Shown here: positions 1,045 to 28,494 of the stretch, piece after piece
How the letters are laid out: each line of letters starts with the position of its first letter
Numbering within the stretch: the first letter of the stretch is position 1
Assembly: GCA_030647845.1 (NCBI GenBank)
Contig: JAUSIO010000004.1
Coordinates: forward strand, 1 to 35,152
Length of the DNA: 35,152 nt
Origin: a bacterium
GTDB taxonomy: Bacteria > Patescibacteriota > Minisyncoccia > Phycocordibacterales > SBAW01
Reading direction: 5' to 3'
The notes under the pieces: generated by a model
The model's input: the letters and a program-made list of their open reading frames with translations, nothing else
Database searches by the model: none
What the model was told of the DNA's origin: nothing
Made by a program: the position numbers and the translations under genes

Positions 1045-1935
1045 ATGGAGGTCAGTAATCTCGTTCTCTATTCAATACAGCAGCTCGGGGTGATGTTTGC
1101 CGTTGGGGCGCAAACAGTTATCCTGGTTGCATACTTGCTCGCAATCCGCAACGGCATAGTAGACGAGCAAGAAGAGCGCTTTTCAAAAGCGGTCAAGCGG
1201 GTGTTGTTTGTAGGCTTATTTTTGATTGTCATATCCGGCTTGGCGATAACCGCGCTCGAGCTTTTGGCCGCGCACCGGCCGATAGTATTCTCTCCCGCGT
1301 ATCTTTTTAAGTGGTGTTTGATTGGCATGGGGGTAGTGCTCGCGCGCGCAACATGGGGCATCTCAAGGTCGGCAGGATTACTCGAAGGCGTTGCCGGCGC
1401 TACGTGGTACGCGCTTTTTGCCGTGCATATTTTGGCACCGGTCGCCACTTGGCCGCAATTGCTGACGCTCTTTTCGGTGTGGCTCATTGTTTTTGTACTT
1501 GGCTGGACGGGGCTGGTGTTTGGACTACGCGGTAAGCGAGCAGTAGTCGAGGCTTCGGTTGCAAAAGAAAAAAATACGAAAGTACTAAAAACCATGCCTG
1601 CCGCCTGCCTGCCGGTAGGCAGGGCAAGGCAGGCGCCGGTGGTCGTACGGCCAATACAACCAACACGACCGATACAGCCGGTGGCGGCGTTTATAGCTCC
1701 AATGCCAAAAGTACTTCCTCATGTCGTGCCGGTGGTACCATTCCGCCCTACCATACCGGAGAACCTCCCCGTGTTTACAACCGACGCTCCTCTTGTGCCG
1801 CAGCCGCCCCAAGTAGCGCAGGCGGTTGTTGTCGAGCAAAAAGTGGACGACCCAAACAGCACACCAGGACTTCCTCATATCCGCGTGATGCCAAAAACCA
1901 TTGAGGAGCTACAAAAAATACTTGCACATATATGA
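1045..1935 (+). CDS. Multi-pass membrane protein with a proline-rich C-terminal tail (296 aa)
   Basis: ATG ORF with 4-5 hydrophobic helices in the first ~170 aa, then a P/V/Q-rich tail with a tandem RPIQPT/RPIQPV. TACAAT lies 6 nt upstream of the ATG. Its stop overlaps the next start (ATGA). Confidence 0.7.
   Translation: MEVSNLVLYSIQQLGVMFAVGAQTVILVAYLLAIRNGIVDEQEERFSKAVKRVLFVGLFLIVISGLAITALELLAAHRPIVFSPAYLFKWCLIGMGVVLARATWGISRSAGLLEGVAGATWYALFAVHILAPVATWPQLLTLFSVWLIVFVLGWTGLVFGLRGKRAVVEASVAKEKNTKVLKTMPAACLPVGRARQAPVVVRPIQPTRPIQPVAAFIAPMPKVLPHVVPVVPFRPTIPENLPVFTTDAPLVPQPPQVAQAVVVEQKVDDPNSTPGLPHIRVMPKTIEELQKILAHI
1596..1634. repeat. PAL-B palindromic repeat, nested/duplicated copy, in frame inside the CDS
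   Basis: GCCTGCC-GCCTGCCT-GCCGGT-AGGCAGGG-CAA-GGCAGGC, translated as ACLPVGRARQA. Same GCCTGCCT...AGGCAGGC arms as the copies at 19891, 23941, 25215 and 28098. Confidence 0.75.
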
Positions 1936-5129: not shown

Positions 5130-8069
5130 ATGGATAGGTACGATCATAAAAAGATAGAAAAGAAGTGGCAGAAGCGATGGGAGGAGTCGCAAGCGTTTCG
5201 TGCTGACGATGACTCCAAAAAGCAAAAAGACTATATCCTAATTGAGTTCCCGTACCCGTCGGGCGATGGCTTGCATGTTGGGCACGTGCGCTCGTGGACC
5301 GCGATGGACGTGGTGGCGCGCAAGCGGCGCGCGCAGGGCCGCAATGTCTTGTACCCAATCGGTTGGGATGCGTTTGGCTTACCAACCGAGAACTATGCGC
5401 TCAAAACGGGCAAAGACCCGCGCGTGGTAACCCGCGAAAATACCGACAACTTCCGTCGGCAAATCAAATCGCTCGGCATTTCCTTCGACTGGTCTCGCGA
5501 GGTCAACACCACCGACCCAAACTATTACAAATGGACACAATGGATTTTTCTCCAGCTATTCAAAAAAGGTCTTGCGTACAAGGCACAGACGCAAATTAAC
5601 TGGTGTCCAAAAGACAAAATCGGTTTGGCAAACGAAGAGGTGTTGACCCATTCGACAAGCTCAGGGCAGGTAGCCGTCTGCGAGCGTTGCGGCACGCCGG
5701 TTGAAAAGCGTCTCAAAGAGCAGTGGATGCTCGCGATTACCAAATATGCACAGCGCTTGTACGACGACCTCGACACGGTGGACTACATCCCCGCCGCAAA
5801 AATCGGCCAGCGCAACTGGATAGGCCCGAGCGAAGGCGCTGCAATTGAGTTTTCTATAAGCTCCGCAGGTGAAACCTGCGGAAGCGCAAAAGTGTTTACT
5901 ACGCGGCCGGACACTCTATTTGGCGCAACATACTTGGTACTGGCTCCCGAGCACGCATTGGTGCACGAGCTTGCCGAAAAAGTGGAAAATAAAGACGAAG
6001 TAGTACGATATATCACAGCGGCAAAAAATAAAAACGAGATTGATAGGACAACAGAAGGGAAGGAAAAAACAGGGGTGGAATTAAAGGGGGTCAAAGCAAT
6101 CAACCCAGCAAACAAAGAAGAAATCCCGATTTTTGTTGCCGACTATGTGTTGGGCGGCTATGGAACAGGTGCCATTATGGCAGTACCTGCCCACGACGAA
6201 CGTGACTTCGCGTTTGCAAAAAAATTTGATTTACCTATCAAAATCGTTATTGAGCCACATATAATACAAACAACCGGGTCGAGTCCCTATCGAGAAGGGG
6301 AGCCAATCGTTTCTCGCGATGGCATTATCGCCATAGTCAAACATTGGTCGGAAGAAAAATATATTGGTTTACAGTGGAAAAAAGTTGATTGGCATACGTT
6401 TATCACTGGTGGTATTGAGAAGGATCAAACACCGGAAGAAGCTGGTATCACAGAGATTCGCGAAGAAACTGGATTCTTGACCCCCAAATTAGTCAAAGAG
6501 TTTGGCGTGGTGCACGGACAGTTCTACCACGTGCCTAAAAAAGAAAATCGTCTTGTCCACGGACATATTCTTTATTTTGAACTTCAGGACGATACGCATG
6601 AGAAAATATCGGAGAAGGAGAGCGCAATACACGATATCCACTGGTTGAGTGCAGAAGAGCTTGTTAGTTGGCTTACCCCAAAAACGCATACTTACGCACT
6701 CGAGCTACAACAAAAAGGAGTCGCGCTTTACACGGGAGAAGGGATCCTCACTAACTCTGGAAAGTTCAACGATCTCTCAAGCGAAGATGCAAAAAAGAAA
6801 ATTACCGAGTTTGTGGGGGGCAGGTGGGTGACGACCTTTAAACTCCGCGACTGGGTGTTTAGCAGGCAGAGGTATTGGGGCGAACCGATACCTCTTATAC
6901 ATTGTCAAAAGGACGGTTGGGTTGCCGTGCCAGAAGCAGATTTGCCAGTGGAGTTACCCGTGGTTGAAAAATATCAGCCGACCGATACCGGCGAGTCGCC
7001 CCTTGCCAATATAAAAGAGTTTGTGGACACGGCGTGTCCTAAATGTGGGGGGCTGGCAAAACGCGAGACCGACGTGATGCCTAACTGGGCGGGCAGTAGT
7101 TGGTACTGGTTGCGCTACTGTGACCCACACAACGACAAAGAGTTTGCCTCGCAAGAAAAACTTGACTACTGGGTCGGTTCTGTTGCACGGCAAGGTTTAA
7201 CCTTGCCGCAGAGCGGCGGAGTGGATTGGTACAACGGTGGGATGGAGCACACGACACTTCACCTTTTATATTCGCGTTTTTGGCACAAATTTTTATTTGA
7301 CATTGGCGTGGTGCCCACCAGCGAGCCGTATATAAAGCGCACCAGCCACGGGCTGATTTTGGCCGCGGATGGCTCAAAGATGTCAAAGTCAAAAGGCAAT
7401 ACGGTGAGCCCCGACGAGCTGGTTGAGCGCTTTGGCGCCGACTCCCTGCGCTTGTACGAGATGTTTATCGGGCCCTTTGACCAACCGGTGGCGTGGAGTA
7501 CCAACAGTATTTTGGGGGTCCGGCGTTTTTTGGAGAGGGTGTGGGCGCTGGGTGCAAGGACATCCGATGTCCCAGGGACATCGGATGTCCAAACGGAGGT
7601 GTTGCTCAACCAGACAATCAAAAAAGTTTCTGATGATATTGAGCATTTAAAAATGAATACCGCTGTCTCGGCGTTGATGATTTTGGCTAATCAATTGGCA
7701 GAACTAGAAAAGGTGCCCCATGTTGCGTACAAAACACTCTTGCAATTACTTGCGCCGTTCGCGCCGCACATAACGCACGAGCTTGCTGAAACATTAGGAT
7801 TGGAGCGCGCACAGTGGGAAGTATGGCCCGCATTTGACGAGTCAAAAATCGCTGCAACAACTGCGGTAGTCGCGGTGCAGGTCAACGGCAGGCTACGTGC
7901 CTCGATAGAACTTGCCACAGGGACGACAAAGGAGGAGGTCATCGCCCGCGCTCGCGCCGAGCCCGCAGTGGTGCGCTATCTTGCAGGCGGCAAAGAACAA
8001 AAAGTGGTCTATGTGCCGGGCAAGGTCGTCAATTTTGTGCTCGAAGACCCTGAAGAATTGAAGAGTTGA
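5130..8069 (+). CDS. leuS: Leucine--tRNA ligase (979 aa) carrying an internal Nudix-like insertion and two palindromic inserts
   Basis: HIGH-type motif (PSGDGLHVGH), CP1 editing-domain signatures (TTRPDTLFGATY, GTGAIMAVPAHDERD), KMSKSKGN, and zinc knuckles (CERCG, CPKCGG). Confidence 0.95.
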   Translation: MDRYDHKKIEKKWQKRWEESQAFRADDDSKKQKDYILIEFPYPSGDGLHVGHVRSWTAMDVVARKRRAQGRNVLYPIGWDAFGLPTENYALKTGKDPRVVTRENTDNFRRQIKSLGISFDWSREVNTTDPNYYKWTQWIFLQLFKKGLAYKAQTQINWCPKDKIGLANEEVLTHSTSSGQVAVCERCGTPVEKRLKEQWMLAITKYAQRLYDDLDTVDYIPAAKIGQRNWIGPSEGAAIEFSISSAGETCGSAKVFTTRPDTLFGATYLVLAPEHALVHELAEKVENKDEVVRYITAAKNKNEIDRTTEGKEKTGVELKGVKAINPANKEEIPIFVADYVLGGYGTGAIMAVPAHDERDFAFAKKFDLPIKIVIEPHIIQTTGSSPYREGEPIVSRDGIIAIVKHWSEEKYIGLQWKKVDWHTFITGGIEKDQTPEEAGITEIREETGFLTPKLVKEFGVVHGQFYHVPKKENRLVHGHILYFELQDDTHEKISEKESAIHDIHWLSAEELVSWLTPKTHTYALELQQKGVALYTGEGILTNSGKFNDLSSEDAKKKITEFVGGRWVTTFKLRDWVFSRQRYWGEPIPLIHCQKDGWVAVPEADLPVELPVVEKYQPTDTGESPLANIKEFVDTACPKCGGLAKRETDVMPNWAGSSWYWLRYCDPHNDKEFASQEKLDYWVGSVARQGLTLPQSGGVDWYNGGMEHTTLHLLYSRFWHKFLFDIGVVPTSEPYIKRTSHGLILAADGSKMSKSKGNTVSPDELVERFGADSLRLYEMFIGPFDQPVAWSTNSILGVRRFLERVWALGARTSDVPGTSDVQTEVLLNQTIKKVSDDIEHLKMNTAVSALMILANQLAELEKVPHVAYKTLLQLLAPFAPHITHELAETLGLERAQWEVWPAFDESKIAATTAVVAVQVNGRLRASIELATGTTKEEVIARARAEPAVVRYLAGGKEQKVVYVPGKVVNFVLEDPEELKS
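6255..6720 (+). other. Nudix-hydrolase-like domain inserted within LeuRS (about residues 376-530)
   Basis: GGIEKDQTPEEAGITEIREETGF (6408..6476) fits the Nudix box Gx5Ex7REUxEExGU at 7 of 9 fixed positions (E7->Q, R15->T). It lies between ...FDLPIKIVIEP and YTGEGILTNSGKF, where the LeuRS linker is normally short. Confidence 0.7.
7188..7208. repeat. 21-nt perfect palindrome in frame inside leuS
   Basis: CGGCAAGGTT-T-AACCTTGCCG, within the segment translated VARQGLTLPQ, just upstream of the conserved GGMEHTTLHLLYSRF block. Confidence 0.7.
7558..7590. repeat. 33-nt perfect palindrome (two self-complementary 15-mers) in frame inside leuS
   Basis: GGACATCCGATGTCC-CAG-GGACATCGGATGTCC. Each 15-mer is itself a hairpin. 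33 nt equals 11 codons, translated RTSDVPGTSDV. Confidence 0.85.
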
Positions 8070-8124: not shown

Positions 8125-9171
8125 ATGACACCAACCACCGCAGACAAGACGGGCTTTAAGCCTAAGGCAATCGTAAAAAAGCTTTTAAGCGGGTTGCCGG
8201 AACGCTCGCGTATCGTGCTCGAAGCGCGTTTTGGTCTTGGGCAAAGTCCCGACCGAGTGACACTCGAGTCGATAGGGAAGCGTTATGGTATCACAAGGGA
8301 GCGGGTGCGCCAGATAGAAAACCACGCACTCATGACACTCAAAAAGTCGCCGGCATTTGCCGAGGCAAATTCTGCGTTCCATGAGCTTGAGCGCATCATC
8401 GACTCCTTGGGCGGCATCGTATGCGAGGACGACCTGCTCAACTTCATTACCAAGGATACCAGCATGCAGAACCACATTTACTTTTTGCTGGTGTTGGGCG
8501 ACCCGTTTAAGTATCGCAAAGAAGACGAAGAGGTACAGCGCTGTTGGTATGTCGACCAAGAGCTTGCCCGCAACATCGAAGGTGCACTTAAAAGTTTGTA
8601 CGAAGGACTCTCTGATGACGACTTGATACCCGAAGGCGAGATGATAGACCGTTTTATCAAAGAGCTCCAAAACATCAACGACAAACATCGCAATCAAGAA
8701 GTGCTCAAGCGGTGGCTTACCATCTCGAAGAAAATCGGTAAGAACCCGCTGGGTGAGTGGGGTCCTGCATCCTCGCCGAACGTCAAAATCAAAGGCGTAC
8801 GCGACTATGCATACCTCGCGGTCAAAAAGCATGGCTCGCCCCTGCACTTCCGCGAAGTCGCAAAACTCATCGAAAAGATGTTTAACCGCGCGGCACATAT
8901 CGCAACAACCCACAACGAACTGATTAAAGACGAGCGCTTCGTGTTGGTTGGCCGCGGCATGTATGCGCTCCGCGAATGGGGCTACACAGAGGGCGTGGTG
9001 CGCGACGTTATCCGCGAGGTGTTGCGCGAGAGCGGCCCTCTGACCCGCGACGCGATTGTAGAAAAGGTACTTAAAGAGCGGCATGTCAAACCTGGTACGA
9101 TTGTCGTGAACCTCCAAAATCAGAAATATTTTAAACGCGCAAAAGACGGACGCTTCTCGGTTGTAAAGTAA
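8125..9171 (+). CDS. Sigma-70 region-4-like HTH plus HARE-HTH domain protein (348 aa)
   Basis: N-terminus LPERSRIVLEARFGL...TLESIGKRYGITRERVRQIENHAL is Sigma70_r4-like. C-terminus HGSPLHFREVAKLIE...IKDERFVLVGRGMYALREWGY is HARE-HTH-like. Confidence 0.7.
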   Translation: MTPTTADKTGFKPKAIVKKLLSGLPERSRIVLEARFGLGQSPDRVTLESIGKRYGITRERVRQIENHALMTLKKSPAFAEANSAFHELERIIDSLGGIVCEDDLLNFITKDTSMQNHIYFLLVLGDPFKYRKEDEEVQRCWYVDQELARNIEGALKSLYEGLSDDDLIPEGEMIDRFIKELQNINDKHRNQEVLKRWLTISKKIGKNPLGEWGPASSPNVKIKGVRDYAYLAVKKHGSPLHFREVAKLIEKMFNRAAHIATTHNELIKDERFVLVGRGMYALREWGYTEGVVRDVIREVLRESGPLTRDAIVEKVLKERHVKPGTIVVNLQNQKYFKRAKDGRFSVVK

Positions 9172-9533: not shown

Positions 9534-10910
9534 ATGTTTTTGTACGATAGGGCGCGATCACTTCAAGGAAAATTTGTGATGTGGGGTATTGACCCGGTTG
9601 TCTTTACAACGACCGTGCTCTTTATACTTGGTGTTGTGGTTTGGGAAAATGACCCTAAGGCATTTACCACTTTCTTGTATGCGCTGACGGTATCCTCCCC
9701 GCTGTGGCTACCTGTCTTCTTGGTGGTAATATTTTGGATCACGTGGATAGACTACATCCGGATGAGGTTTTGGTTTTCGTGGACCTATGTTCTGCTCGAA
9801 ATCCAGTTGCCACAGGAAGTTGAAAAATCGCCTCTCGCTATGGAGACCTTTTTAGCTACCATTTGGAACAGTGGCGGAGAGACGACACTCCTGCACCGTA
9901 TATGGAGAGGGACGCATCGCCCCGTGTGGGCTCTGGAAATTGCAAGCAACGAGGGTCGTATTAGTTACTATATACACATGCGCCGTGACTGGCGAAACAT
10001 CGTCGAAGCACGTCTGTATGGTCAGTTCCCCGAAGCAAAAATAGTAGAAGTAGATGACTATGTTGCAAAAATTCCGTTCAACCTCAAACAGTATAGTTTA
10101 CACGGCAGCGAATATGAAAAAGGTAATAGTAACATCGGTGCGTTACCGATAAAAACATATGTTGACTTTAAGCTCGACAAAAACGAAGACCAGGAATATC
10201 GCGTTGACCCGCTTACTAACGTACTCGAATTGCTAGGGCAAGTTGGCCCTGGCGAGTATTATTGGTTCCAGATTATCCTCAAGGCGCGTAAGAGCGACGA
10301 GTGGTATGGTTTTTACTCCTGGAGTGACAAATTTATGGACGACGCGAAGGCAGAAATAAAAAAGATAATACAACTCGCCGCAGAGCGCGCCAAAAGTTTG
10401 ACTGACGACCCGCAGACACAAGCGCAGGCGGCGGCGCGCGGCTTAACACTTTTGACCAGTGGCGAAAAGTTGCGGGTCGAAGCGATTGAACGCTCGATGG
10501 CAAAGCCAGTTTTTGAGTGCGGCATACGGGTCATTTATCTCGCGGAGAAAGAGCGCTTCAATGGTGTCAATATCGCCGCGATGGTTCGTTTTTTTGACAC
10601 CTTTCGCAGTACTGGCACTGCACGCGAGTACAACTCACTCGGGGTGATTCGCGCCAACATGAATTACAATCACCTGTGGCAAGATTTTCGTGGTATCCGC
10701 AACAACATAGAGCGGTATCGTATTTTTGACAAGTATAAAAAACGCGCCTACTTTTATGCCCCGTACGACCAGGAGCCTATATTTTTAACCACCGAGGAGG
10801 TGGCGACGATATGGCATTTTCCGAGTTCGATCGTACAAACACCGGGGCTTAACCGTGTGGCGGCGCGCCGAGCTGAAGCGCCGTCAAACTTACCGACGCT
10901 ACCCACGTAA
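9534..10910 (+). CDS. Membrane-anchored hypothetical protein (458 aa)
   Basis: ATG ORF with TATACT 7 nt upstream. 2-3 N-terminal TM helices, then a soluble domain (LLEIQLPQEVEKSPLAMETFLATIW...). No Walker motif seen. Confidence 0.7.
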   Translation: MFLYDRARSLQGKFVMWGIDPVVFTTTVLFILGVVVWENDPKAFTTFLYALTVSSPLWLPVFLVVIFWITWIDYIRMRFWFSWTYVLLEIQLPQEVEKSPLAMETFLATIWNSGGETTLLHRIWRGTHRPVWALEIASNEGRISYYIHMRRDWRNIVEARLYGQFPEAKIVEVDDYVAKIPFNLKQYSLHGSEYEKGNSNIGALPIKTYVDFKLDKNEDQEYRVDPLTNVLELLGQVGPGEYYWFQIILKARKSDEWYGFYSWSDKFMDDAKAEIKKIIQLAAERAKSLTDDPQTQAQAAARGLTLLTSGEKLRVEAIERSMAKPVFECGIRVIYLAEKERFNGVNIAAMVRFFDTFRSTGTAREYNSLGVIRANMNYNHLWQDFRGIRNNIERYRIFDKYKKRAYFYAPYDQEPIFLTTEEVATIWHFPSSIVQTPGLNRVAARRAEAPSNLPTLPT

Positions 10911-13800: not shown

Positions 13801-14274
13801 GTGGCGAAAAAGCTGACAAAAGAGCGTGGGGCGTTTGTGCTGATAGGTATCCTGCTTGTGTTGCTTGTGGGGTGGTGGAGTATTTCGTCTTTTGCTTCTG
13901 TGACCTCGAGCTTTTCCACGGCGGCATATAACCCCGACACTCCACCTGTCGTCGATAGCAGATACACTCCCGTAACTCCGGTGATAATTCATCACCGTGT
14001 TGCAAATGGTACGCACACATACAAAGGGTCTTTAAACCTACCGGCTGACTGCGATATGCTCTCGACCAGTGTCGAGGCAACCACTGGCAACCCAAGACAT
14101 CTTAAAGTTTTCCTCATGGTACTCCACTCAAGCGGCGGATGTATATCTACAAGCAGCGTCGTCGCAACAGCGTTTTCTGTATCGTTTAGAGGTATGGACA
14201 ACGCGCCTGTTGTGTTTGACGGTCTCACGGTAAATAATGTAAAAATTCCTTCTTCGGTTGTGGAGGGCACGTAA
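13801..14274 (+). CDS. Membrane-anchored or secreted hypothetical protein (157 aa)
   Basis: GTG at 13801 with TATACT 6 nt upstream; the alternative GTG at 13753 is the track start. One N-terminal TM helix (AFVLIGILLVLLVGWW), then a beta-rich domain. Confidence 0.55.
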   Translation: MAKKLTKERGAFVLIGILLVLLVGWWSISSFASVTSSFSTAAYNPDTPPVVDSRYTPVTPVIIHHRVANGTHTYKGSLNLPADCDMLSTSVEATTGNPRHLKVFLMVLHSSGGCISTSSVVATAFSVSFRGMDNAPVVFDGLTVNNVKIPSSVVEGT

Positions 14275-14275
14275 T

Positions 14276-15121
14276 ATGTCCATACTTGTCACAAAAGCCG
14301 ATGGCACGACCGAAGCGTTTGACCAAGCAAAGTTAGAGCGCTCGCTCAAGCGCGCAGGAGCAAGCGCTGAGGTGGCGGTAGACATCGTCGAGGAAATTAC
14401 TAAAGAGTTATACAGCGGTATCACCACAAACGAGTTGTATCGGCGTGCGTTTGCTCATCTGCGCGAACACCGGCGCGGGGTGGCAGCGCGATACTCACTT
14501 AAGCGGGCGATACTCCAGTTTGGACCATCGGGTTTCCCGTTCGAAGCGTACTTGGCGGAGTTGTTTCGCGCCGAAGGATACACAGCCGAAATCGACCAAC
14601 TGGTACAAGGCGCGTGTGTCGAGCACGAAGTAGATGTCGTGATGACTAAAGAAAAAATGGTGACCTATGTTGAAGCAAAGTTCCACAATACCGCTGGGTT
14701 TAAGACCGATTTAAAAACAGTACTCTATGTCAAAGCGCGTATCGACGACATCTCCGCCGCCGCTGAAGCTTCGGCGGACGCGGCGCGCTCTACCACCGAA
14801 GGTTTGGTAGTGACTAACACCAAATTCACTTCTGTAGCGATACAGTACGCGACCTGTCAAGGGCTCTGGCTACTTGGCTGGGAATATCCACAGGAAGGGA
14901 ACCTGCACGACCGTATCGACGCCGCAAAGCTCTACCCAATAACCGCCCTCACTACACTGTCAAAGCGCGAAAAAACGGCTCTATTGAGCGAGAAAAAGGT
15001 CCTTTGTAGCGCGCTTTCGGGCGACAGCAGTGCTCTTGTGCGCGCTGGGATAGCTGGCCGCCGAGCCGATGCGGTCTTGGAGGAAGTGGGCGCATTGTGC
15101 GTCCCCGGAAAAGATATATGA
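14276..15121 (+). CDS. ATP-cone domain fused to a restriction-endonuclease-like (Mrr/PD-(D/E)xK) domain
   Basis: The N-terminus MSILVTKADGTTEAFDQAKLERSLKRAG...TTNELYRRAF fits an ATP-cone. The following part has FEAYLAELFRAEGY and ...HEVDVV...YVEAKF, which fits a D...E-x-K nuclease core. GGAGGG lies 8 nt upstream of the ATG. Confidence 0.7.
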   Translation: MSILVTKADGTTEAFDQAKLERSLKRAGASAEVAVDIVEEITKELYSGITTNELYRRAFAHLREHRRGVAARYSLKRAILQFGPSGFPFEAYLAELFRAEGYTAEIDQLVQGACVEHEVDVVMTKEKMVTYVEAKFHNTAGFKTDLKTVLYVKARIDDISAAAEASADAARSTTEGLVVTNTKFTSVAIQYATCQGLWLLGWEYPQEGNLHDRIDAAKLYPITALTTLSKREKTALLSEKKVLCSALSGDSSALVRAGIAGRRADAVLEEVGALCVPGKDI

Positions 15122-18693: not shown

Positions 18694-20751
18694 TTACCAA
18701 ATCCTGGCACGGTTTTTTTCTGTTCGAAATAGTTTGTCTCCTTTTTTTACATTGAATGCCTCGTAAAATGCGGGGAGGTTGGATGCTGGGCCGTTGACAC
18801 GCAGGGGTGCCGCGGCATGCGGGTCGGTAAACGCCTGCGTTTTTGTAAACTCCACTCGAGCCAGCTCGCGCTCTCCTTGGGCAAACCCGAGGAAGAAGCG
18901 CTGCTCGGGGGTAAATCCTGCAACTACTTTCCTGCCAGTTTTTACAAGACGCCTTTGTAGCGCGTCGTAGGCAATCGCGGCGCCGCCGAGGTCGGCGCTG
19001 TTTTCTCCCAGCGTTAGTTTGCCGTTGGCGCGCACACCGGGCACAACTTCGTACTGGTTAAACTGTCTGGTGAGTAAGTGCCCTTTTTTGACAAAGTAAG
19101 CACTATCTTTTTTGGTCCACCAACTGTGCATATTGCCGTGCGCATCAAACTTTGACCCTTGATCGTCGAAACCGTGGGTGATTTCGTGTCCGATAACCGC
19201 GCCAATAGCGCCGTAGTTAACCGCATCGTCCGCGCGCGAGTCAAAAAACGGGGGCTGCAAAATTGCGGCAGGGAAGACAATCTCGTTTAAGTTAAAATGG
19301 CAGTATGCGTTAACGGTTTGTGGCGTCATAAACCATTCGTGTCGGTTGACTGATTTTTGGAGGCGGCGCATACCGCGGCAGTGCTCAAACTCGCGGCTCC
19401 GGAGCACATTGCCAAAGTAGTCGTCGGGGCGGATTGTTAGCCCGCGGTACGTTTCCCACTGTGCAGGGTAGCCTATCTTGCGGTTCATCGCGTGCAACTT
19501 GTGTAGTGCTTTTTGTTTGGTCGCGGCGCTCATCCAATCGAGTTTTTTGATGCGCACCTCGTATGCCACAAACAGGTTGCGGACGAGCGCTTCCATTTGT
19601 TTTTTTGCGCCCTTGCTAAAATGTTTTTGGACATACCGCTTGCCGAGTGCGTCGCCAACATTGGTGTTTACCGAGCCAAGCGCGCGCCGCCAGAGCGGAC
19701 GCATTTTTTTGCTTCCCGTTAACACGGTGCCATAAAAATTAAAACTCGCGCGCGCGAACTTTTGCGAAAGGAGCGGTGCAAACGAGTTGATACAGTGCCA
19801 CTCGAGATAGATTTTCCAATCTTGGAGCGGGATGTTGTCGAACAAACGCCCCAGCCCGCGGAAAAATTTTGGCTGTGCAACCACGACCTCGCCTGCCTGC
19901 GCAGGCAGGCGTTCTGCTCCCGCGTCGAGCAGTGCAAAATACTCCCGCCAATCGATTTGAGGCAGCTCGCGCATTAACGTTGTGAGTGACTTTTTGTTGT
20001 ATGTTTTTTCGACATCGCGGGTCTCCTCTTTCGGCATCGAGATTTTTGCGAGGTGTGTTTCGATCTTCATCACTGTGCGCATTGCCTGTTCGGCTGCGGC
20101 TGGTGCAAACCCAAAAAGGCGGAGCAATTTTTTAATATGCGCCTTGTACGCCTCACGCACACGCTTTTGCTCGGTGGCGTGGCTCAAGTAATACTCGCGG
20201 TCGGGCATGCCTAAACCATCTTGCACCAAGTGGAGCAGGTAGCGGTTGCTGTTTTTTGCATCTTGGTCGAGCTCCAACTCCCAAAAAGCCAAACCGCCGA
20301 GGCGGTGCATACGCGCAGCATGCCCAACTATTTCTTTTTTTGACGTGATGTTTTGGATGTCTTTGCGCCACGCTAAAAGCGGGTGGTGACCTAGCTTGTC
20401 GCGCCGCGCTGTGTCCATCGCAGAGCGATACATATCTGCAATAAGTTGCTCGGGCGTTCCTTTTTTAAAATGTTTTCCCCGACGCTTCGGTCGGGGTCCC
20501 GACCCCGAGGGGCGTCGGGATTGCAGTAAATCCTCAACAATATTCTTGAGTTGTTGCTCGGTGGTGTAGCGCAACATAGTAAAAGTACCCCAACGCGCTT
20601 CAGCCGGAGGAATTTTGTTTTTGCGAATCCAGCCACCGTTTGCATAGTTATAAAAGTCATCCTGTGGCCGCACCTTCCTATCAAGATTCCCCACGTCAAA
20701 TCCCCAGTATTTCGGGTCTCTTTTGATGGCTTTCCTACGAAAATTTTGCAT
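18694..20751 (-). CDS. M13 family zinc metallopeptidase (PepO/endothelin-converting-enzyme-like)
   Basis: VRPQDDFYNYANGGW at the N-terminus, VIGHEITHGFDDQG (HExxH), GENSADLGG, and the C-terminal ...NRARIW. I chose the start at 20751 (MQNFRRK...); the longer track start at 20826 lies in a TA repeat. Confidence 0.9.
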   Translation of the reverse strand: MQNFRRKAIKRDPKYWGFDVGNLDRKVRPQDDFYNYANGGWIRKNKIPPAEARWGTFTMLRYTTEQQLKNIVEDLLQSRRPSGSGPRPKRRGKHFKKGTPEQLIADMYRSAMDTARRDKLGHHPLLAWRKDIQNITSKKEIVGHAARMHRLGGLAFWELELDQDAKNSNRYLLHLVQDGLGMPDREYYLSHATEQKRVREAYKAHIKKLLRLFGFAPAAAEQAMRTVMKIETHLAKISMPKEETRDVEKTYNKKSLTTLMRELPQIDWREYFALLDAGAERLPAQAGEVVVAQPKFFRGLGRLFDNIPLQDWKIYLEWHCINSFAPLLSQKFARASFNFYGTVLTGSKKMRPLWRRALGSVNTNVGDALGKRYVQKHFSKGAKKQMEALVRNLFVAYEVRIKKLDWMSAATKQKALHKLHAMNRKIGYPAQWETYRGLTIRPDDYFGNVLRSREFEHCRGMRRLQKSVNRHEWFMTPQTVNAYCHFNLNEIVFPAAILQPPFFDSRADDAVNYGAIGAVIGHEITHGFDDQGSKFDAHGNMHSWWTKKDSAYFVKKGHLLTRQFNQYEVVPGVRANGKLTLGENSADLGGAAIAYDALQRRLVKTGRKVVAGFTPEQRFFLGFAQGERELARVEFTKTQAFTDPHAAAPLRVNGPASNLPAFYEAFNVKKGDKLFRTEKNRARIW
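19891..19910. repeat. PAL-B 20-nt perfect palindrome in frame inside the M13 peptidase
   Basis: GCCTGCCTGC/GCAGGCAGGC, translated on the minus strand as RLPAQAG. Confidence 0.8.
20477..20520 (-). repeat. HP-A double-hairpin repeat in frame inside the M13 peptidase
   Basis: The reverse complement TCCCGACGCCCCTCGGGGTCGGGACCCCGACCGAAGCGTCGGGG is nearly identical to the dnaK copy. Translated [16 protein letters not shown]. Confidence 0.85.
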
Positions 20752-20824
20752 ATAAAGCAGATAATACCGCAAACTCTGAAGAAAGCGAAAAACGCAATCT
20801 TCCTCGAGCCCTTGACAAAATTCC

Positions 20825-20837
20825 ATATATATATATA
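20825..20837. repeat. (AT)6A dinucleotide microsatellite in a divergent promoter region
   Basis: ATATATATATATA, read directly from the sequence. Confidence 0.8.
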
Positions 20838-22252: not shown

Positions 22253-24106
22253 ATGACGCTTGATGAGGTGCGGTCAAAGTATTTAGCATTTTTTGCCGAG
22301 AGGGGACACATCGTGATTCCTTCGGCATCTTTAGTGCCGCAGAATGACCCTACCACTTTGTTTACCGGCTCGGGGATGCAACCGCTCCTGCCGTATTTGT
22401 TGGGGCGTGACCACCCCGGGGGCAAGCGCTTGGTTGACTCGCAAAAATGCTTCCGCTCGATGGACATCGAGGAGGTGGGCGACAACCGCCACACCACGTT
22501 TTTCGAGATGCTCGGCAACTGGTCCTTGGGTGATTATTTTAAACAAGAGCAACTGACTTATTTTTTTACGTTTCTTACAGAAGAGATACAGATTCCGAAA
22601 GAGCGCCTGTGGGTAACGTGTTTTGAGGGCGACGAAACTTTGCACTTGCCAAAAGATACCGAGTCGGCAGAGATTTGGAAAAAGCTCGGCATACCCGAGC
22701 ATCATATTCGTTTTTACGGCTCGAAAAAGAATTGGTGGTCACGCTCGGGCATACCGGAGGCGATGCCTGTAGGCGAGCCGGGCGGCCCAGACTCGGAAGT
22801 GTTTTACGATTTTGGTCAAGAGCTGAAGTTACACGAAAGTTCTGAATTTAAGAATGAAGTGTGCAACCCCAACTGCGACTGCGGCCGGTTCCTCGAAATC
22901 GGCAACTCGGTGTTTATGCAGTATGTCAAGAACCCTTCGACAGGCTCAGGGCGGGATAGTTTTAGCAAACTACCCCGACAAAACGTCGACTTCGGCGGTG
23001 GGTTGGAGCGCATTGCCGCAGTTTCTGAAAACGAACCAGATATTTTTAAAGTTGCACATACATCAATCATCGAACAGTTAGAAAAAATAACCGGTAAAAC
23101 ATACGCTGAAAATATACGAACCTTTCGAATTATTGCAGACCATGTTAAAGCCGCGGTGTTTCTTGTCGCCGATGGCGTTAAGCCCTCAAACACCGACCAA
23201 GGATATTTTGTACGGCGGCTATTGCGCCGCGCGGTGCGCTACGCTGACAAACTCGGCATTACACAGAGCGGTTTAGCTACTGTGGTTGAGGCGACGGCCC
23301 GGATGTATGTACACTCGTATCCAGAAGTGCTTGCACAAGCGGCGGATATTCAGAAAATAATTCTCACAGAAGAAGCACAGTTTCGCAAAACGCTCGCGCG
23401 CGGCATCAAAGAGTTCGAGAGGTTTGCAGGGCAAGGCATGCTCTCGGCGCACGACGCGTTCCAACTCGTGACGACCTACGGCTTCCCGCTCGAACTAATT
23501 TTGGAAGAAGCGGGGGAAAAAGGGATTAAACAAATCGACATCGAAGGGTTTAAAGAATTGTTAAAGGAGCATCAACAGCTGAGCCGCGCCGGGTCGGAAC
23601 AAAAGTTTAAGGGCGGTTTGGCAGACACAGCAGAGAAGACCGTGCGTTTGCACACAGCGCACCACTTGTTGTTGAAGGCACTACAAATAGTGCTCGGTCC
23701 GGATGTAAAACAACGCGGGAGCAACATCACGCAAGAGCGTTTGCGCATCGACTTTTCCTACGGCGCAAAAATGACCAACGGACAGATTTCCAAAGTCGAA
23801 AAGATTGTAAACGAAAAAATAAAAGAGGATATCCCAGTTGTACGCACCGAGATGTCAAAGGACGAAGCCGAGAAACTCGGAGCCGAACACGAGTTTGGCG
23901 CCAAATATCCCGACCGCGTGTCGGTCTACTCGGTTGGACCCCTGCCTACCGGCAGGCAGGACTCGAGACCTTTTTCCATCGAGTTTTGCGGCGGGCCGCA
24001 CACTGGAAGTACTGGAGAGCTGGCAACTGGAGAATTGAAATTTAAAATCAAAAAAGAAGAAGCGGTCGCCCAAGGTATCCGCCGGATAAAAGCAGTGTTG
24101 GAGTAA
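22253..24106 (+). CDS. alaS: Alanine--tRNA ligase, short form (617 aa, no C-Ala/DHHA1 domain)
   Basis: FTGSGMQPL, FEMLGNWSLGDYFK, editing-domain motifs HTAHHLL and CGGPHTGSTGEL. The ORF stops shortly after the editing domain. Confidence 0.92.
   Translation: MTLDEVRSKYLAFFAERGHIVIPSASLVPQNDPTTLFTGSGMQPLLPYLLGRDHPGGKRLVDSQKCFRSMDIEEVGDNRHTTFFEMLGNWSLGDYFKQEQLTYFFTFLTEEIQIPKERLWVTCFEGDETLHLPKDTESAEIWKKLGIPEHHIRFYGSKKNWWSRSGIPEAMPVGEPGGPDSEVFYDFGQELKLHESSEFKNEVCNPNCDCGRFLEIGNSVFMQYVKNPSTGSGRDSFSKLPRQNVDFGGGLERIAAVSENEPDIFKVAHTSIIEQLEKITGKTYAENIRTFRIIADHVKAAVFLVADGVKPSNTDQGYFVRRLLRRAVRYADKLGITQSGLATVVEATARMYVHSYPEVLAQAADIQKIILTEEAQFRKTLARGIKEFERFAGQGMLSAHDAFQLVTTYGFPLELILEEAGEKGIKQIDIEGFKELLKEHQQLSRAGSEQKFKGGLADTAEKTVRLHTAHHLLLKALQIVLGPDVKQRGSNITQERLRIDFSYGAKMTNGQISKVEKIVNEKIKEDIPVVRTEMSKDEAEKLGAEHEFGAKYPDRVSVYSVGPLPTGRQDSRPFSIEFCGGPHTGSTGELATGELKFKIKKEEAVAQGIRRIKAVLE
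23941..23960. repeat. PAL-B palindromic repeat in frame inside alaS
   Basis: CCTGCCTACCGGCAGGCAGG, one mismatch from a perfect palindrome. Translated LPTGRQ. Confidence 0.8.
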
Positions 24107-25075: not shown

Positions 25076-26389
25076 ATGCAAGACATGATTCCTCCAGCTC
25101 CACGCGACGGGCGCTCTATCCGAAATATCCCGGTGTCAAACAAACCCCAACGCCAAATACAGCGTCGGCAAGAGGAGCTGGAGGAAAAAGAGTTTCTCGA
25201 CACACCTCTGCCCCGCCTGCCTACCGGACAGGCAGGCCCAATAAGACCACGGCGCTCCCGTCGCGTACTGTGGTTTGTGCTTGGGGTGGCACTTGTGTGC
25301 GCGACCGCGAGTATTCTTTTGGCGACCATTTTTGCGGGTGCGAGTATAACGCTGTATCCAAAAACACAAATCGTGACGCCTCCGGCGAGCATACTAGCAG
25401 AGCCAGACGCACCTTCTGGTGTATTGCCATACCAAACTATGAGCATCACGCGGTCGGCGAGCACCACGGTTGCGGCCTCGGGCACACAGCACGTGTCAAA
25501 AACGGCAACCGGTGTTATTACGATTTTTAATGGCTACAGCACCGCGAGCCAAAAATTAGTAGCAACCACGCGTTTTGAGGCCCCCGATGGCAAAATCTAC
25601 CGCATCCGCGAGTTAGTCACGGTCCCCGGTGCAACCAAAAAGCAAGACGGTACGCTCACACCCGGTTCCACCACAGCCACCGTATACGCTAGTGTCGCAG
25701 GAGCGGACTATAACCTCGCGCAAGCAACACATTTTACCCTCCCCGGTTTTAAAGGCGACCCGCAGTACAGCAAATTCTACGCCCAATCACAAGGCGCAGT
25801 AAGCGGCGGTTTTGTGGGTGAGCAGGCGGCAGTTGCTCCGGCTGATATGGTAAAAGCGCAACAGTCATTGCAAAGCCAGTTGAGTGCCGCGGTTGCGTCC
25901 GCCTCGACTGCAGATGTCCCAACCGGTTTTTTGCCGGTTGCTAATTCTCTCGTCACTACATACGCTACCATCGCACAAACACAAGGGACTGGCACTACTG
26001 TTATACTTTCGCAAAGTGCAAACGGTCAGGGCGCGATTGTGCGCGAGAGCGACCTTGCGGCGGCAATCGCCGCACAAGTGGTGAGCGGCTACCGTGGCGA
26101 GGTAGTTGTGTTTGTCGACCCGTCAAAAATTACTATTTCGGTGCCAAGTGGCACAAAACCAACCGGAGCGCTCACGCTTGCACTCGCTGGCACGCCGACC
26201 TTAGTATGGCAGTTTGATGCCGATGCGATAAAACAAGCTCTGCTTGGTAAGAAAAAAGTAGAATTTGAAGCTATCATAAAAACGTTCCAACCGGGTGTCG
26301 ACCGTGCCACGCTCACCGTCCGCCCGTTTTGGCAGTCGTCCCTCCCAACCGACCCGAGTAAACTAACCGTCACGGCCACGCAACAATAA
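25076..26389 (+). CDS. Membrane-anchored extracytoplasmic protein (437 aa), family uncertain
   Basis: ATG ORF. Basic N-terminus, TM helix LWFVLGVALVCATASILLATIF, then a long T/S/A-rich beta-type domain. Possible baseplate-J-like resemblance, from memory only. Confidence 0.65.
   Translation: MQDMIPPAPRDGRSIRNIPVSNKPQRQIQRRQEELEEKEFLDTPLPRLPTGQAGPIRPRRSRRVLWFVLGVALVCATASILLATIFAGASITLYPKTQIVTPPASILAEPDAPSGVLPYQTMSITRSASTTVAASGTQHVSKTATGVITIFNGYSTASQKLVATTRFEAPDGKIYRIRELVTVPGATKKQDGTLTPGSTTATVYASVAGADYNLAQATHFTLPGFKGDPQYSKFYAQSQGAVSGGFVGEQAAVAPADMVKAQQSLQSQLSAAVASASTADVPTGFLPVANSLVTTYATIAQTQGTGTTVILSQSANGQGAIVRESDLAAAIAAQVVSGYRGEVVVFVDPSKITISVPSGTKPTGALTLALAGTPTLVWQFDADAIKQALLGKKKVEFEAIIKTFQPGVDRATLTVRPFWQSSLPTDPSKLTVTATQQ
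25215..25237. repeat. PAL-B palindromic repeat in frame inside the CDS
   Basis: GCCTGCCT-ACCGGAC-AGGCAGGC, translated LPTGQAG. Confidence 0.8.
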
Positions 26390-27867: not shown

Positions 27868-28494
27868 ATGTTAGTAGGACCAAAATACAAAATCTGTAAA
27901 CGCTTGGGCGCCTCGGTATTCGAAAAATGCCAGACGCAAAAGTTTCAACTAGTCGAGGCGCGGGCGCCTCGACGCAGCCGCCCCAAGCGAGGCGGGAGCG
28001 GCGACTATGGCGTGCAACTGCTCGAAAAGCAAAAAGCGCGTTTTACCTACGGTCTTTCCGAAAGCCAGTTTGCGCGCTATGTCCACGAAGCAATGGACCT
28101 GCCTGCCGGCAGGCAGGGAAAAAAGACTAGTGCGGAAGGCCTTGTCTCGCGCCTCGAGTCGCGTTTGGACAATGTGGTGTGGCGCGCGGGCCTCACCAAA
28201 ACGCGCCGTGCGGCGCGCCAACTTGTCTCGCACGGGCATATCACGGTGGGTGGGCGCCGTATGACTATCCCTTCCTACTGCGCCCAGGTGGGTGACGTAG
28301 TTGCCGTGCGCCCCGAGAGTCGCCAGAGTGCACTGTTTTTGGGTCGCGCAGAAGCCGTGCTCGAGACAAAAACACCGGCATGGATGGAAATCGCTGACGG
28401 AGGCATGTCCATTACCATCGCCGCTGTCCCAACATTGCCGGAACTTGAGCTCCCCTTTAACCCCGCGGTCATCATTCAATTTTATAGTCGTTAA
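27868..28494 (+). CDS. rpsD: 30S ribosomal protein S4
   Basis: GPKYKICKRLG, LESRLDNVVWRAGL, ARQLVSHGHITVGGRRMTIPSY (S4 domain). Confidence 0.95.
   Translation: MLVGPKYKICKRLGASVFEKCQTQKFQLVEARAPRRSRPKRGGSGDYGVQLLEKQKARFTYGLSESQFARYVHEAMDLPAGRQGKKTSAEGLVSRLESRLDNVVWRAGLTKTRRAARQLVSHGHITVGGRRMTIPSYCAQVGDVVAVRPESRQSALFLGRAEAVLETKTPAWMEIADGGMSITIAAVPTLPELELPFNPAVIIQFYSR
28098..28117. repeat. PAL-B 20-nt perfect palindrome in frame inside rpsD
   Basis: CCTGCCTGCC/GGCAGGCAGG, translated LPAGRQ. Confidence 0.85.

Follow-up and report, generated by a model that had tools for sequence, protein, structure and literature searches.

A GC-rich palindrome inserted in frame in five genes of a Patescibacteriota contig probably belongs to a dispersed cross-phylum family of very short hairpins

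How does nearly the same palindrome of about 20 nucleotides (nt) come to lie in frame in five different genes of a single bacterial contig? We addressed this question in contig JAUSIO010000004.1 of a Patescibacteriota genome (GenBank assembly GCA_030647845.1), which was analyzed over its whole length of 35,152 nt (hereafter, the window) and in which the surrounding genes are housekeeping genes; its gene content and nearest homologues assign it to the Patescibacteria/Paceibacteria. The pattern CCTGCCT-N0-8-AGGCAGG matched the window five times (1604-1623, 19892-19909, 23941-23960, 25216-25236, and 28098-28117), as compared to a mean of 0.00 in 100 shuffles that preserved dinucleotide composition. 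The heptamer CCTGCCT occurred 14 times against 3.2 expected, with 11 of the 14 falling within the five palindromes. We consider it probable, at roughly 60%, that these copies belong to a dispersed family of 18- to 21-nt perfect GC-rich palindromes that has spread by insertion across many phyla and viral contigs. All five lie inside long open reading frames (ORFs):

28098-28117, in rpsD (ribosomal protein S4; 27868-28494, plus strand): 20-nt perfect palindrome CCTGCCTGCCGGCAGGCAGG
23941-23960, in alaS (alanyl-tRNA synthetase, AlaRS; 22253-24106, plus strand): 20 nt, CCTGCCTACCGGCAGGCAGG, a variant with an asymmetric center, product LPTGRQ
19891-19910, in an M13 peptidase gene (18694-20826, minus strand): 20-nt perfect palindrome GCCTGCCTGCGCAGGCAGGC, product LPAQAG
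25216-25236, in the gene of a conserved 437-aa protein (25076-26389, plus strand): 21-nt variant CCTGCCTACCGGACAGGCAGG, product LPTGQAG
1596-1634, in the gene of a conserved candidate phyla radiation (CPR) membrane protein (1045-1935, plus strand): nested pair

The S4, AlaRS, and M13 peptidase hosts have strong Pfam matches, the 437-aa protein has orthologues in four related contigs, and the membrane protein is a member of a conserved CPR family. In rpsD, the insertion consists of CCTGCCTGCCGGCAGGCAGG plus one G (21 nt, 28098-28118) and is translated as (D)LPAGRQ(G). The alaS copy lies in the tRNA_SAD domain, directly upstream of the FCGGPH motif, and its single A/C mismatch is at the loop-closing pair. 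The M13 peptidase copy has an 18-nt core with the center GCGC, and its full palindrome extends to 22 nt (19890-19911). In the membrane protein gene, the 20-mer CCTGCCTGCCGGTAGGCAGG (1604-1623) occupies the center of a second, degenerate copy, and the pair encodes PAACLPVGRARQA (reading CLPVGRARQA) within the Pro-rich linker of the protein. The net length of each of the five copies is in frame, be it through a variant of 18 or 21 nt, one additional G, or the reuse of native bases. These data bear out much of the sequence-only reading that had drawn attention to the palindrome: the fivefold recurrence is nonrandom, the positions had been given correctly to within 1-2 nt and the frames and peptides correctly for all five copies, indels at the center do switch the product between GRQ and QAG while the host ORFs stay open, and every copy is intragenic. 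Its description of one single motif merged two phase variants, with the centers CC/GG and GC/GC.

Judged against orthologous sequences, all five window sites are insertions. Of the 120 closest S4 proteins, 114 read HEAME-K(K/R)G and six read HEAMD-LPAGRQ-G. The window protein is the single carrier among the 120 closest AlaRS proteins, 92 of which have the short form; AlaRS orthologues read VGPL-DSA/SNP-FS, the window has LPTGRQ between VGPL and DS, and the homologue P0228 carries LPAGRQ at another position. The M13 peptidase site is empty in the orthologue from the syntenic relative L123/L124, and the site in the 437-aa protein is empty in the orthologues from L121, L122, L124, and L125 (L numbers denote the loci compared). 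The closest homologue of the membrane protein, P0242, is without the segment, and in P0243 this position holds a single FPAGRQV. The sequence-only reading had asked for a comparison with S4 and AlaRS orthologues lacking the segment, and this supports insertion: the motif is missing from most orthologues and, where present, is written in the same rather than in different codons. L123/L124 retains the S4 copy alone in 20 kb, that is, one of four comparable sites.

The S4 site can be compared in its empty and filled states. The closest noncarrier, L121, has the empty site ATGGAGAAAAAAGG, and the filled site of L122, ATGGA-CCTGCCTGCCGGCAGGCAGGG-GAAAAAG, is an exact 21-nt fill of ATGGA/GAAAAAG, in which we found no duplicated target bases relative to the empty site. 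The window S4 corresponds to the L122-type fill followed by a later deletion of two codons. In a neighbor-joining tree built with the insertion region masked, the carriers fell into three separate clades, each with noncarrier sisters. Because clade A (G/GGAAAAAG) and clades B and C (GCGCA..., GCGCAAA) continue differently after the element, the comparison argues for at least two insertion events at the same S4 nucleotide. Copies also decay, as seen in the S4 gene of L175 (CaTGCCTGCCGGaAatCAGG), and another S4 lineage carries a synonymous CCT>CCC change in the element. In an AlphaFold model of S4 of modest quality (mean pLDDT 65), residues 77-86 form a loop with pLDDT <50 between helices 65-76 and 87-97, in keeping with the surface loop that the sequence-only reading had in mind, and Thermus thermophilus S4 from solved ribosomes shows alignment gaps at the insertion. 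The insertion point (window 28118-28126; empty site of L121) adjoins a run of six to seven adenines, GAAAAAAG, a type of sequence that is prone to transcriptional and translational slippage. One may speculate that slippage at this run kept a frameshifting 20-nt insertion viable until it was compensated.

Is the element restricted to relatives of this contig? We scanned one genome per GTDB species (596 Gb) with the 20-mer CCTGCCTNCCGGNAGGCAGG and found it in at least 120 genome loci, as compared to about 9 matches expected by chance (our estimate, from 18 fixed bases and equal base use). Its hosts among the matches listed include many Patescibacteria classes, Bacteroidota, Omnitrophota, Planctomycetota, Ignavibacteria, Nitrospirota, Bdellovibrionota-type and other "delta" metagenome-assembled genomes (MAGs), Chloroflexi, and others. 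Cultured carriers are Winogradskyella echinorum, Olivibacter oleidegradans, Flagellimonas yonaguniensis, Longitalea luteola, and Flavivirga. Viral contigs (IMG/VR) contributed 48 loci, with six copies on one 29.5-kb contig, while the 18-nt variant (window 19892) was present in at least 120 metagenome loci, many of them from 0.1-µm groundwater filtrates. The enrichment that the sequence-only reading anticipated was found, the motif being widespread across species genomes.

The loci have only the palindrome in common, and their flanks are unrelated. Both main forms, CCTGCCTGCC/GGCAGGCAGG and GCCTGCCTGC/GCAGGCAGGC, are built as an inverted (CCTG)2 tract and differ in phase; either one forms a stem of 8 bp closed by a loop of 4 nt (DNA folding energy of -8.0 to -8.7 kcal/mol). 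The asymmetric center (GCCGGT or ACCGGC) is one variant seen in both orientations. The 21-mer of the window recurs verbatim in the unrelated loci L088, L220, and L074; thus, the length variants are propagated alleles rather than local repairs. A two-step origin of the 18- and 21-nt variants, with a 20-nt insertion followed by local repair, was rejected as a general account, since identical variants turn up again at loci that are unrelated.

These comparisons bear on the idea that each palindrome arose locally, by slippage or template switching that perfected CCTG tracts or quasi-palindromes site by site. The unit does consist of a tetranucleotide repeated in inverted order, a native CCTG..G could have been reused at the AlaRS site, and quasi-palindrome correction is an established mutational process. 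However, the S4 empty sites (ATGGAGAAAAAAGG, ATGGAAAGGAAGGGC, and ATGGAGGGCCGC) contain no CCTG tract, and hundreds of unrelated contexts contain identical 18-, 20-, and 21-mers, which makes such an origin very unlikely. We give next to no weight to a sequencing or assembly artifact, such as an adapter or hairpin chimera. Although most matches come from MAGs and metagenome contigs, cultured isolates carry the element, the same S4 insertion was found in independent samples (JGI, ENA, NCBI, and Logan), and the copies preserve frame, are biased in frame, and decay by point mutation.

What happens to the element inside genes could be followed through its reading frames. Read directly, all frames of the unit are free of stop codons. 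The 18-mer lay in stop-free spans of at least 200 aa in 65 of 122 cases (53%) and the 20-mer in 19 of 127 (15%), a comparison that mixes two collections and whose effect size is therefore uncertain; most 20-mers in the genome sample are noncoding. Within the 65 long spans, the 18-mer was read as LPAQAG 49 times, as compared to 9 and 7 times for the PACAGR and CLRRQA frames (chi-square of about 52 by our own calculation). This bias is independent of the mixing of collections and reflects the avoidance of the Cys/Arg-rich alternatives PACAGR and CLRRQA. Selection in genes sorts both the length class and the frame of the element. Its other coding hosts, which are genuine and often essential genes, include DNA polymerase III alpha (DnaE), IleRS, a UvrD-like helicase-nuclease, PolA, TopA, GyrA, and RpoB.

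The preference for LPAQAG (49:9:7) and the recurrence at the same S4 site could also be expected if selection acted on the peptide, with LPxGRQ or LPAQAG being a useful loop module acquired by proteins. We regard this as highly improbable, since most 20-mers are noncoding, the other two frames are used as well, and the element is also present in tRNA and RNase P-like DNA. Furthermore, the codons do not vary from phylum to phylum, the rare AGG included, and no diverse codons were seen in orthologues.

Copies were also found within one another and within other hairpins. One copy sits in the center of another in L026, L060, L066, L020, L112, and the window (1596-1634), and copies occupy the loops of terminators (L113), of other dispersed hairpins, and of CGTC-tagged hairpins related to those of Ssn nucleases (see below), for example GTCATTCCCG-palindrome-CGGAGGCGGGAAT. 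Strongly complementary flanks were detected at 29-30% of sites as compared to 14-16% of permuted pairs. Because this excess is about twofold, loop targeting holds for a subset only, and we rejected a general rule of insertion into hairpin loops. The D-arm of tRNA genes is a hot spot, with at least six independent cases (L021, L053, L169, L203 twice, L025, and L095) and junctions that include GGTA/GAGC, GGTAGA/GC, and GGTAGA/CGCG. We considered whether the D-arm copies might be parts of functional tRNAs and discarded this, as ARAGORN calls none of these fragments a tRNA; in L169, L053, L095, L203, and L025, they lie in orphan 5' tRNA halves left by the insertion of a GIY-YIG cassette. No pairing of isolated half-sites at consistent distances was detected, and a longer insertion sequence or MITE (miniature transposable element with inverted repeats) bounded by 10-nt terminal inverted repeats (TIRs) was rejected on this ground.

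Other short palindromes also recur across unrelated loci (L055 at ~861-1028 and upstream; flanks in L014, L022, L094, and L085), for example, CCGCCAGCTGGCGG, TCCCGATAGCTATCGGGA, and CCCGCCCGTACCGAACGGGTACGTTCGGGCGGG. The last of these sits in the tRNA D-loop at the very position that the main palindrome takes. Their recurrence suggests a wider class of such hairpins.

What could insert so short a unit? We found no recurrent transposase, including the IS200-like type, among 3,486 ORFs of 168 loci or in the window, and no transposase near 175 copies. This bears on the proposal of a REP/REPIN-type element (repetitive extragenic palindrome) mobilized by a REP-associated tyrosine transposase (RAYT, an IS200-like Y1 enzyme), toward which the sequence-only reading had pointed. 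Such elements are likewise short GC-rich palindromes dispersed in high copy number, they are occasionally intragenic, with cases in genes for tRNA synthetase and DNA polymerase (PMC3733652), and one center variant of our element contains GGTAGG. In contrast to REPs, however, the palindrome has no GTAG/CGTC tag at its end, is perfect and unoriented, has essentially unconstrained flanks, and keeps the same sequence in many phyla, whereas REPs are lineage-specific. Taken with the lack of a recurrent transposase at these loci, this makes a RAYT-mobilized REP distinctly unlikely, and that part of the sequence-only reading did not hold.

The recurrent ORF clusters near copies encode phage portal and capsid proteins, histidine kinases, ABC ATPases, and ParB. 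The one recurrent neighbor that is a candidate enzyme is a small single-domain GIY-YIG protein (77-100 aa, PF01541 only), which would point to a system of the Ssn/SRM type (see below) and away from RAYT. The GIY-YIG ORF was present in 13 loci, and in nine of them the palindrome lay within 150 nt, as compared to about one expected for random positions within the locus (our estimate). The palindrome usually flanks the ORF on a single side and lies within an orphan tRNA half. Among solved proteins, those of the UPF0213 type match these ORFs best, and a search of NCBIfam gave no match. In L169, L053, L095, L203, and L025, the GIY-YIG gene is a cassette within a tRNA gene that brings a fresh 5' tRNA half; the upstream half is orphaned, and its D-arm holds the palindrome. 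GIY-YIG proteins of the single-domain Ssn type are site-specific single-stranded DNA (ssDNA) nucleases that bind hairpin repeats (SRM/NTS) flanking their genes (Chenal et al. 2025, PMC11893778), which makes the GIY-YIG enzyme the best trans-acting candidate.

Cassettes of this kind (~80 aa) stand in tRNA genes near the anticodon arm in L169 (454-816), L053 (2115-2402), L095 (1400-1738), L203 (11370-11672), L025 (3550-3810), and L114 (2359-2571). As a group, the tRNA-gene cassettes look like free-standing homing-type elements that target tRNA genes in CPR, Bacteroidota, and viral contigs. In L223 (~9569-9760), both the 18-nt palindrome and a GIY-YIG ORF break up a sequence resembling RNase P RNA (GGAAAGTCCGAAC...), the ORF being bounded by CCCCCACCGTTTTA and TAAAACGGTGGGGG.

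ParB among the neighbors raises another possibility, namely, that the palindrome is a functional protein-binding site (a parS-like centromere or an operator), shared across phyla since the binding protein is conserved and tolerated where it falls in genes. A perfect 20-bp palindrome would suit such a role, chromosomal parB lies within 350 nt in L003 (2446-2465), L095 (1258-1478), and L070 (7461-7480), and ParB-like genes adjoin the palindrome in the viral loci L159 (3452) and L170 (884). The canonical parS consensus TGTTNCACGTGAAACA, at up to two mismatches, was absent from the window and from the near-parB loci, its absence from the latter counting in favor of this reading. The S4 copy, moreover, has remained perfect in three lineages that differ at synonymous sites close by. 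However, the copies arrived by insertion and did not evolve where they stand, they nest, and they sit in orphan tRNA fragments and in terminator and SRM loops; L123/L124 keeps one of four comparable sites, and copies decay. Variants of 18, 20, and 21 nt would alter the spacing of half-sites, and the proximity to parB in L095 runs via the tRNA/GIY-YIG cluster. We consider a binding site unlikely. Separately, the palindrome of L070 encodes the C terminus of ParB.

We thus return to a dispersed, inserting family, which is marked by unrelated flanks, nesting, hairpin-loop sites, sorting by length and frame, and decay in some lineages. We infer that the element is non-autonomous and that a structure-specific activity acting in trans places it into ssDNA, either at hairpins or beside them; the small single-domain GIY-YIG nuclease, often a neighbor of the palindrome, would be the best candidate. 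Copies in genes would persist only if their net length is a multiple of three (18 or 21 nt, or 20 nt with a compensating indel), if the frame yields the benign LP(A/T)GRQ or LPAQAG, and if the site is a tolerant loop or linker. These three conditions would follow from a unit free of stops and from the very small amount of noncoding DNA in a Patescibacteria-type genome. A bolder formulation, which we hold to be doubtful, is that the palindrome represents a new class of mobile DNA, a hairpin "nano-element" of 18-21 nt that would be the smallest known, move within and between genomes of many phyla including via viruses, be inserted in trans at ssDNA hairpins by a single-domain GIY-YIG ssDNA nuclease, and supply loops of six to seven residues (LPAGRQ or LPAQAG) to essential proteins of small-genome bacteria such as S4, AlaRS, DnaE, RpoB, GyrA, and TopA.

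Several observations weigh against spread by insertion or against parts of the proposed route. In L122, L123, L179, and the window, the S4 palindrome has stayed perfect although neighboring synonymous sites differ, and one S4 nucleotide position is filled in three clades; together, these need a strong target preference, recombination between lineages, or DNA that is under some constraint. Inserting 20 nt shifts the frame of an essential gene, and viable intermediates are hard to picture. We found no insertion intermediate, target-site duplication, or encoded enzyme, and the position frequencies of 12-nt and 8-nt flanks gave no target consensus beyond weak preferences, with base -1 rarely T. 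The link to GIY-YIG genes could be indirect, with the orphan tRNA half (five of the nine loci) serving as neutral ground. The absence of an SRM-type upstream tag and the likeness to UPF0213 further speak against the GIY-YIG protein as the factor, and the window itself is without such a gene. Last, the genome and metagenome locus counts are lower bounds and not a census, and the difference in coding status between the 18-mer and the 20-mer comes from mixed collections.

If confirmed, the family would represent a selfish or semi-selfish unit much smaller than any element that is known to be mobile, and it would have repeatedly rewritten loops on the surface of core proteins for replication, transcription, and translation. 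A defined sequence, empty and filled sites, and a candidate nuclease make it a tractable system for asking how very short hairpins are inserted, a question that the description of REPs, cyanobacterial SDRs, and organelle GC clusters had left unanswered. There may also be a tie to the substrate range of Ssn-type ssDNA nucleases. In annotation, the element is a marker of spurious "LPAGRQ" indels in the marker-gene alignments used for CPR phylogeny.

The window contains further features outside this family. It has no transposase, ParB, or GIY-YIG gene, and an Rfam scan at the gathering threshold gave tRNA-Ala as the sole match. A second small palindrome family is represented by two tandem in-frame copies of GGACATC(C)GATGTCC (7558-7590) in the LeuRS gene (5130-8069, plus strand); the pair encodes RTSDVPGTSDVQ, and the same 15-mer is found in an intergenic spacer of the related contig L122 (3500-3514). 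The same LeuRS carries an inserted NUDIX domain (aa 420-514), and a metagenomic IleRS (L242, 832-4083) carries an inserted histidine-phosphatase domain (aa 426-588). Two domain arrangements are unusual: a fusion of an ATP-cone to an Mrr-type restriction endonuclease domain (14258-15121) and a combination of sigma-70 region 4 with a HARE-HTH domain (8125-9171).

How, then, does the element relate to known systems? Full-text literature searches for its 12- to 20-nt sequences and for the peptides LPAGRQ and LPAQAG returned no relevant paper, and searches by concept returned only work on REPs, SDRs, organelle repeats, and Ssn. The element resembles REP/REPIN sequences in being a short, GC-rich, dispersed hairpin that is sometimes found in polymerase and tRNA synthetase genes, but at 18-21 nt it is perfect, tagless, unoriented, and cross-phylum, all five window copies are genic, and no RAYT was seen. 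Its sequence differs from the parS consensus, its positions are not conserved between the window and L123/L124, and copies also occur in viral contigs and tRNA fragments. In MITEs, TIRs bound an internal segment and a target site is duplicated, whereas the palindrome has no internal segment and the S4 fill shows no duplication.

Rickettsia palindromic elements are selfish repeats of ~100-150 nt, restricted to Rickettsia, that lie in frame in protein genes and add a surface peptide without killing function. The in-frame insertions absent from orthologues of S4, AlaRS, M13 peptidase, the 437-aa protein, and the membrane protein are alike in kind, but our palindrome is 18-21 nt long and its hosts belong to many phyla. 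The cyanobacterial SDR4-6 repeats are reportedly 21-27 nt long, near-identical, nested, hairpin-extending, absent from orthologous sites, and found in Nostocales only (described by Elhai and colleagues in 2008). No enzyme is known for them, and they are not known to colonize essential genes in frame. The palindrome is likewise tiny, nested, and hairpin-associated, but SDR4-6 are said to have other sequences and to be confined to Nostocales. The GC-rich palindromes of organelles (yeast mitochondrial GC clusters, Volvox, and Nematomorpha) are also short proliferating hairpins that can be coding, as are the palindromes of Nematomorpha mitochondria (PMC6649704), but they are organellar, lineage-specific, and of other sequences.

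The Ssn/SRM system shares with the element the presence of hairpin repeats beside small GIY-YIG genes (~80-100 aa), a cross-phylum distribution, and a basis in ssDNA hairpins; the palindrome is often in SRM-like loops, and with its 8-bp stem it falls within the 20- to 50-nt ssDNA-folding hairpins of that system. SRMs are directional, with a conserved upstream CGTC tag required for cleavage, and 2% of NTS are intragenic (PMC11893778). In contrast, the palindrome has no directional upstream tag, and the nearby enzyme ORFs are closest to solved UPF0213 proteins. GTCAT was present within 26 nt of 6.4% of copies as compared to 3.0% of controls, and the palindromes concerned sit inside another SRM-like hairpin. 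Compared with all of these systems, the element behaves as a very short dispersed palindromic repeat that has the defining features of none of them, and what is surprising about it is its distribution across phyla and its colonization of essential genes.

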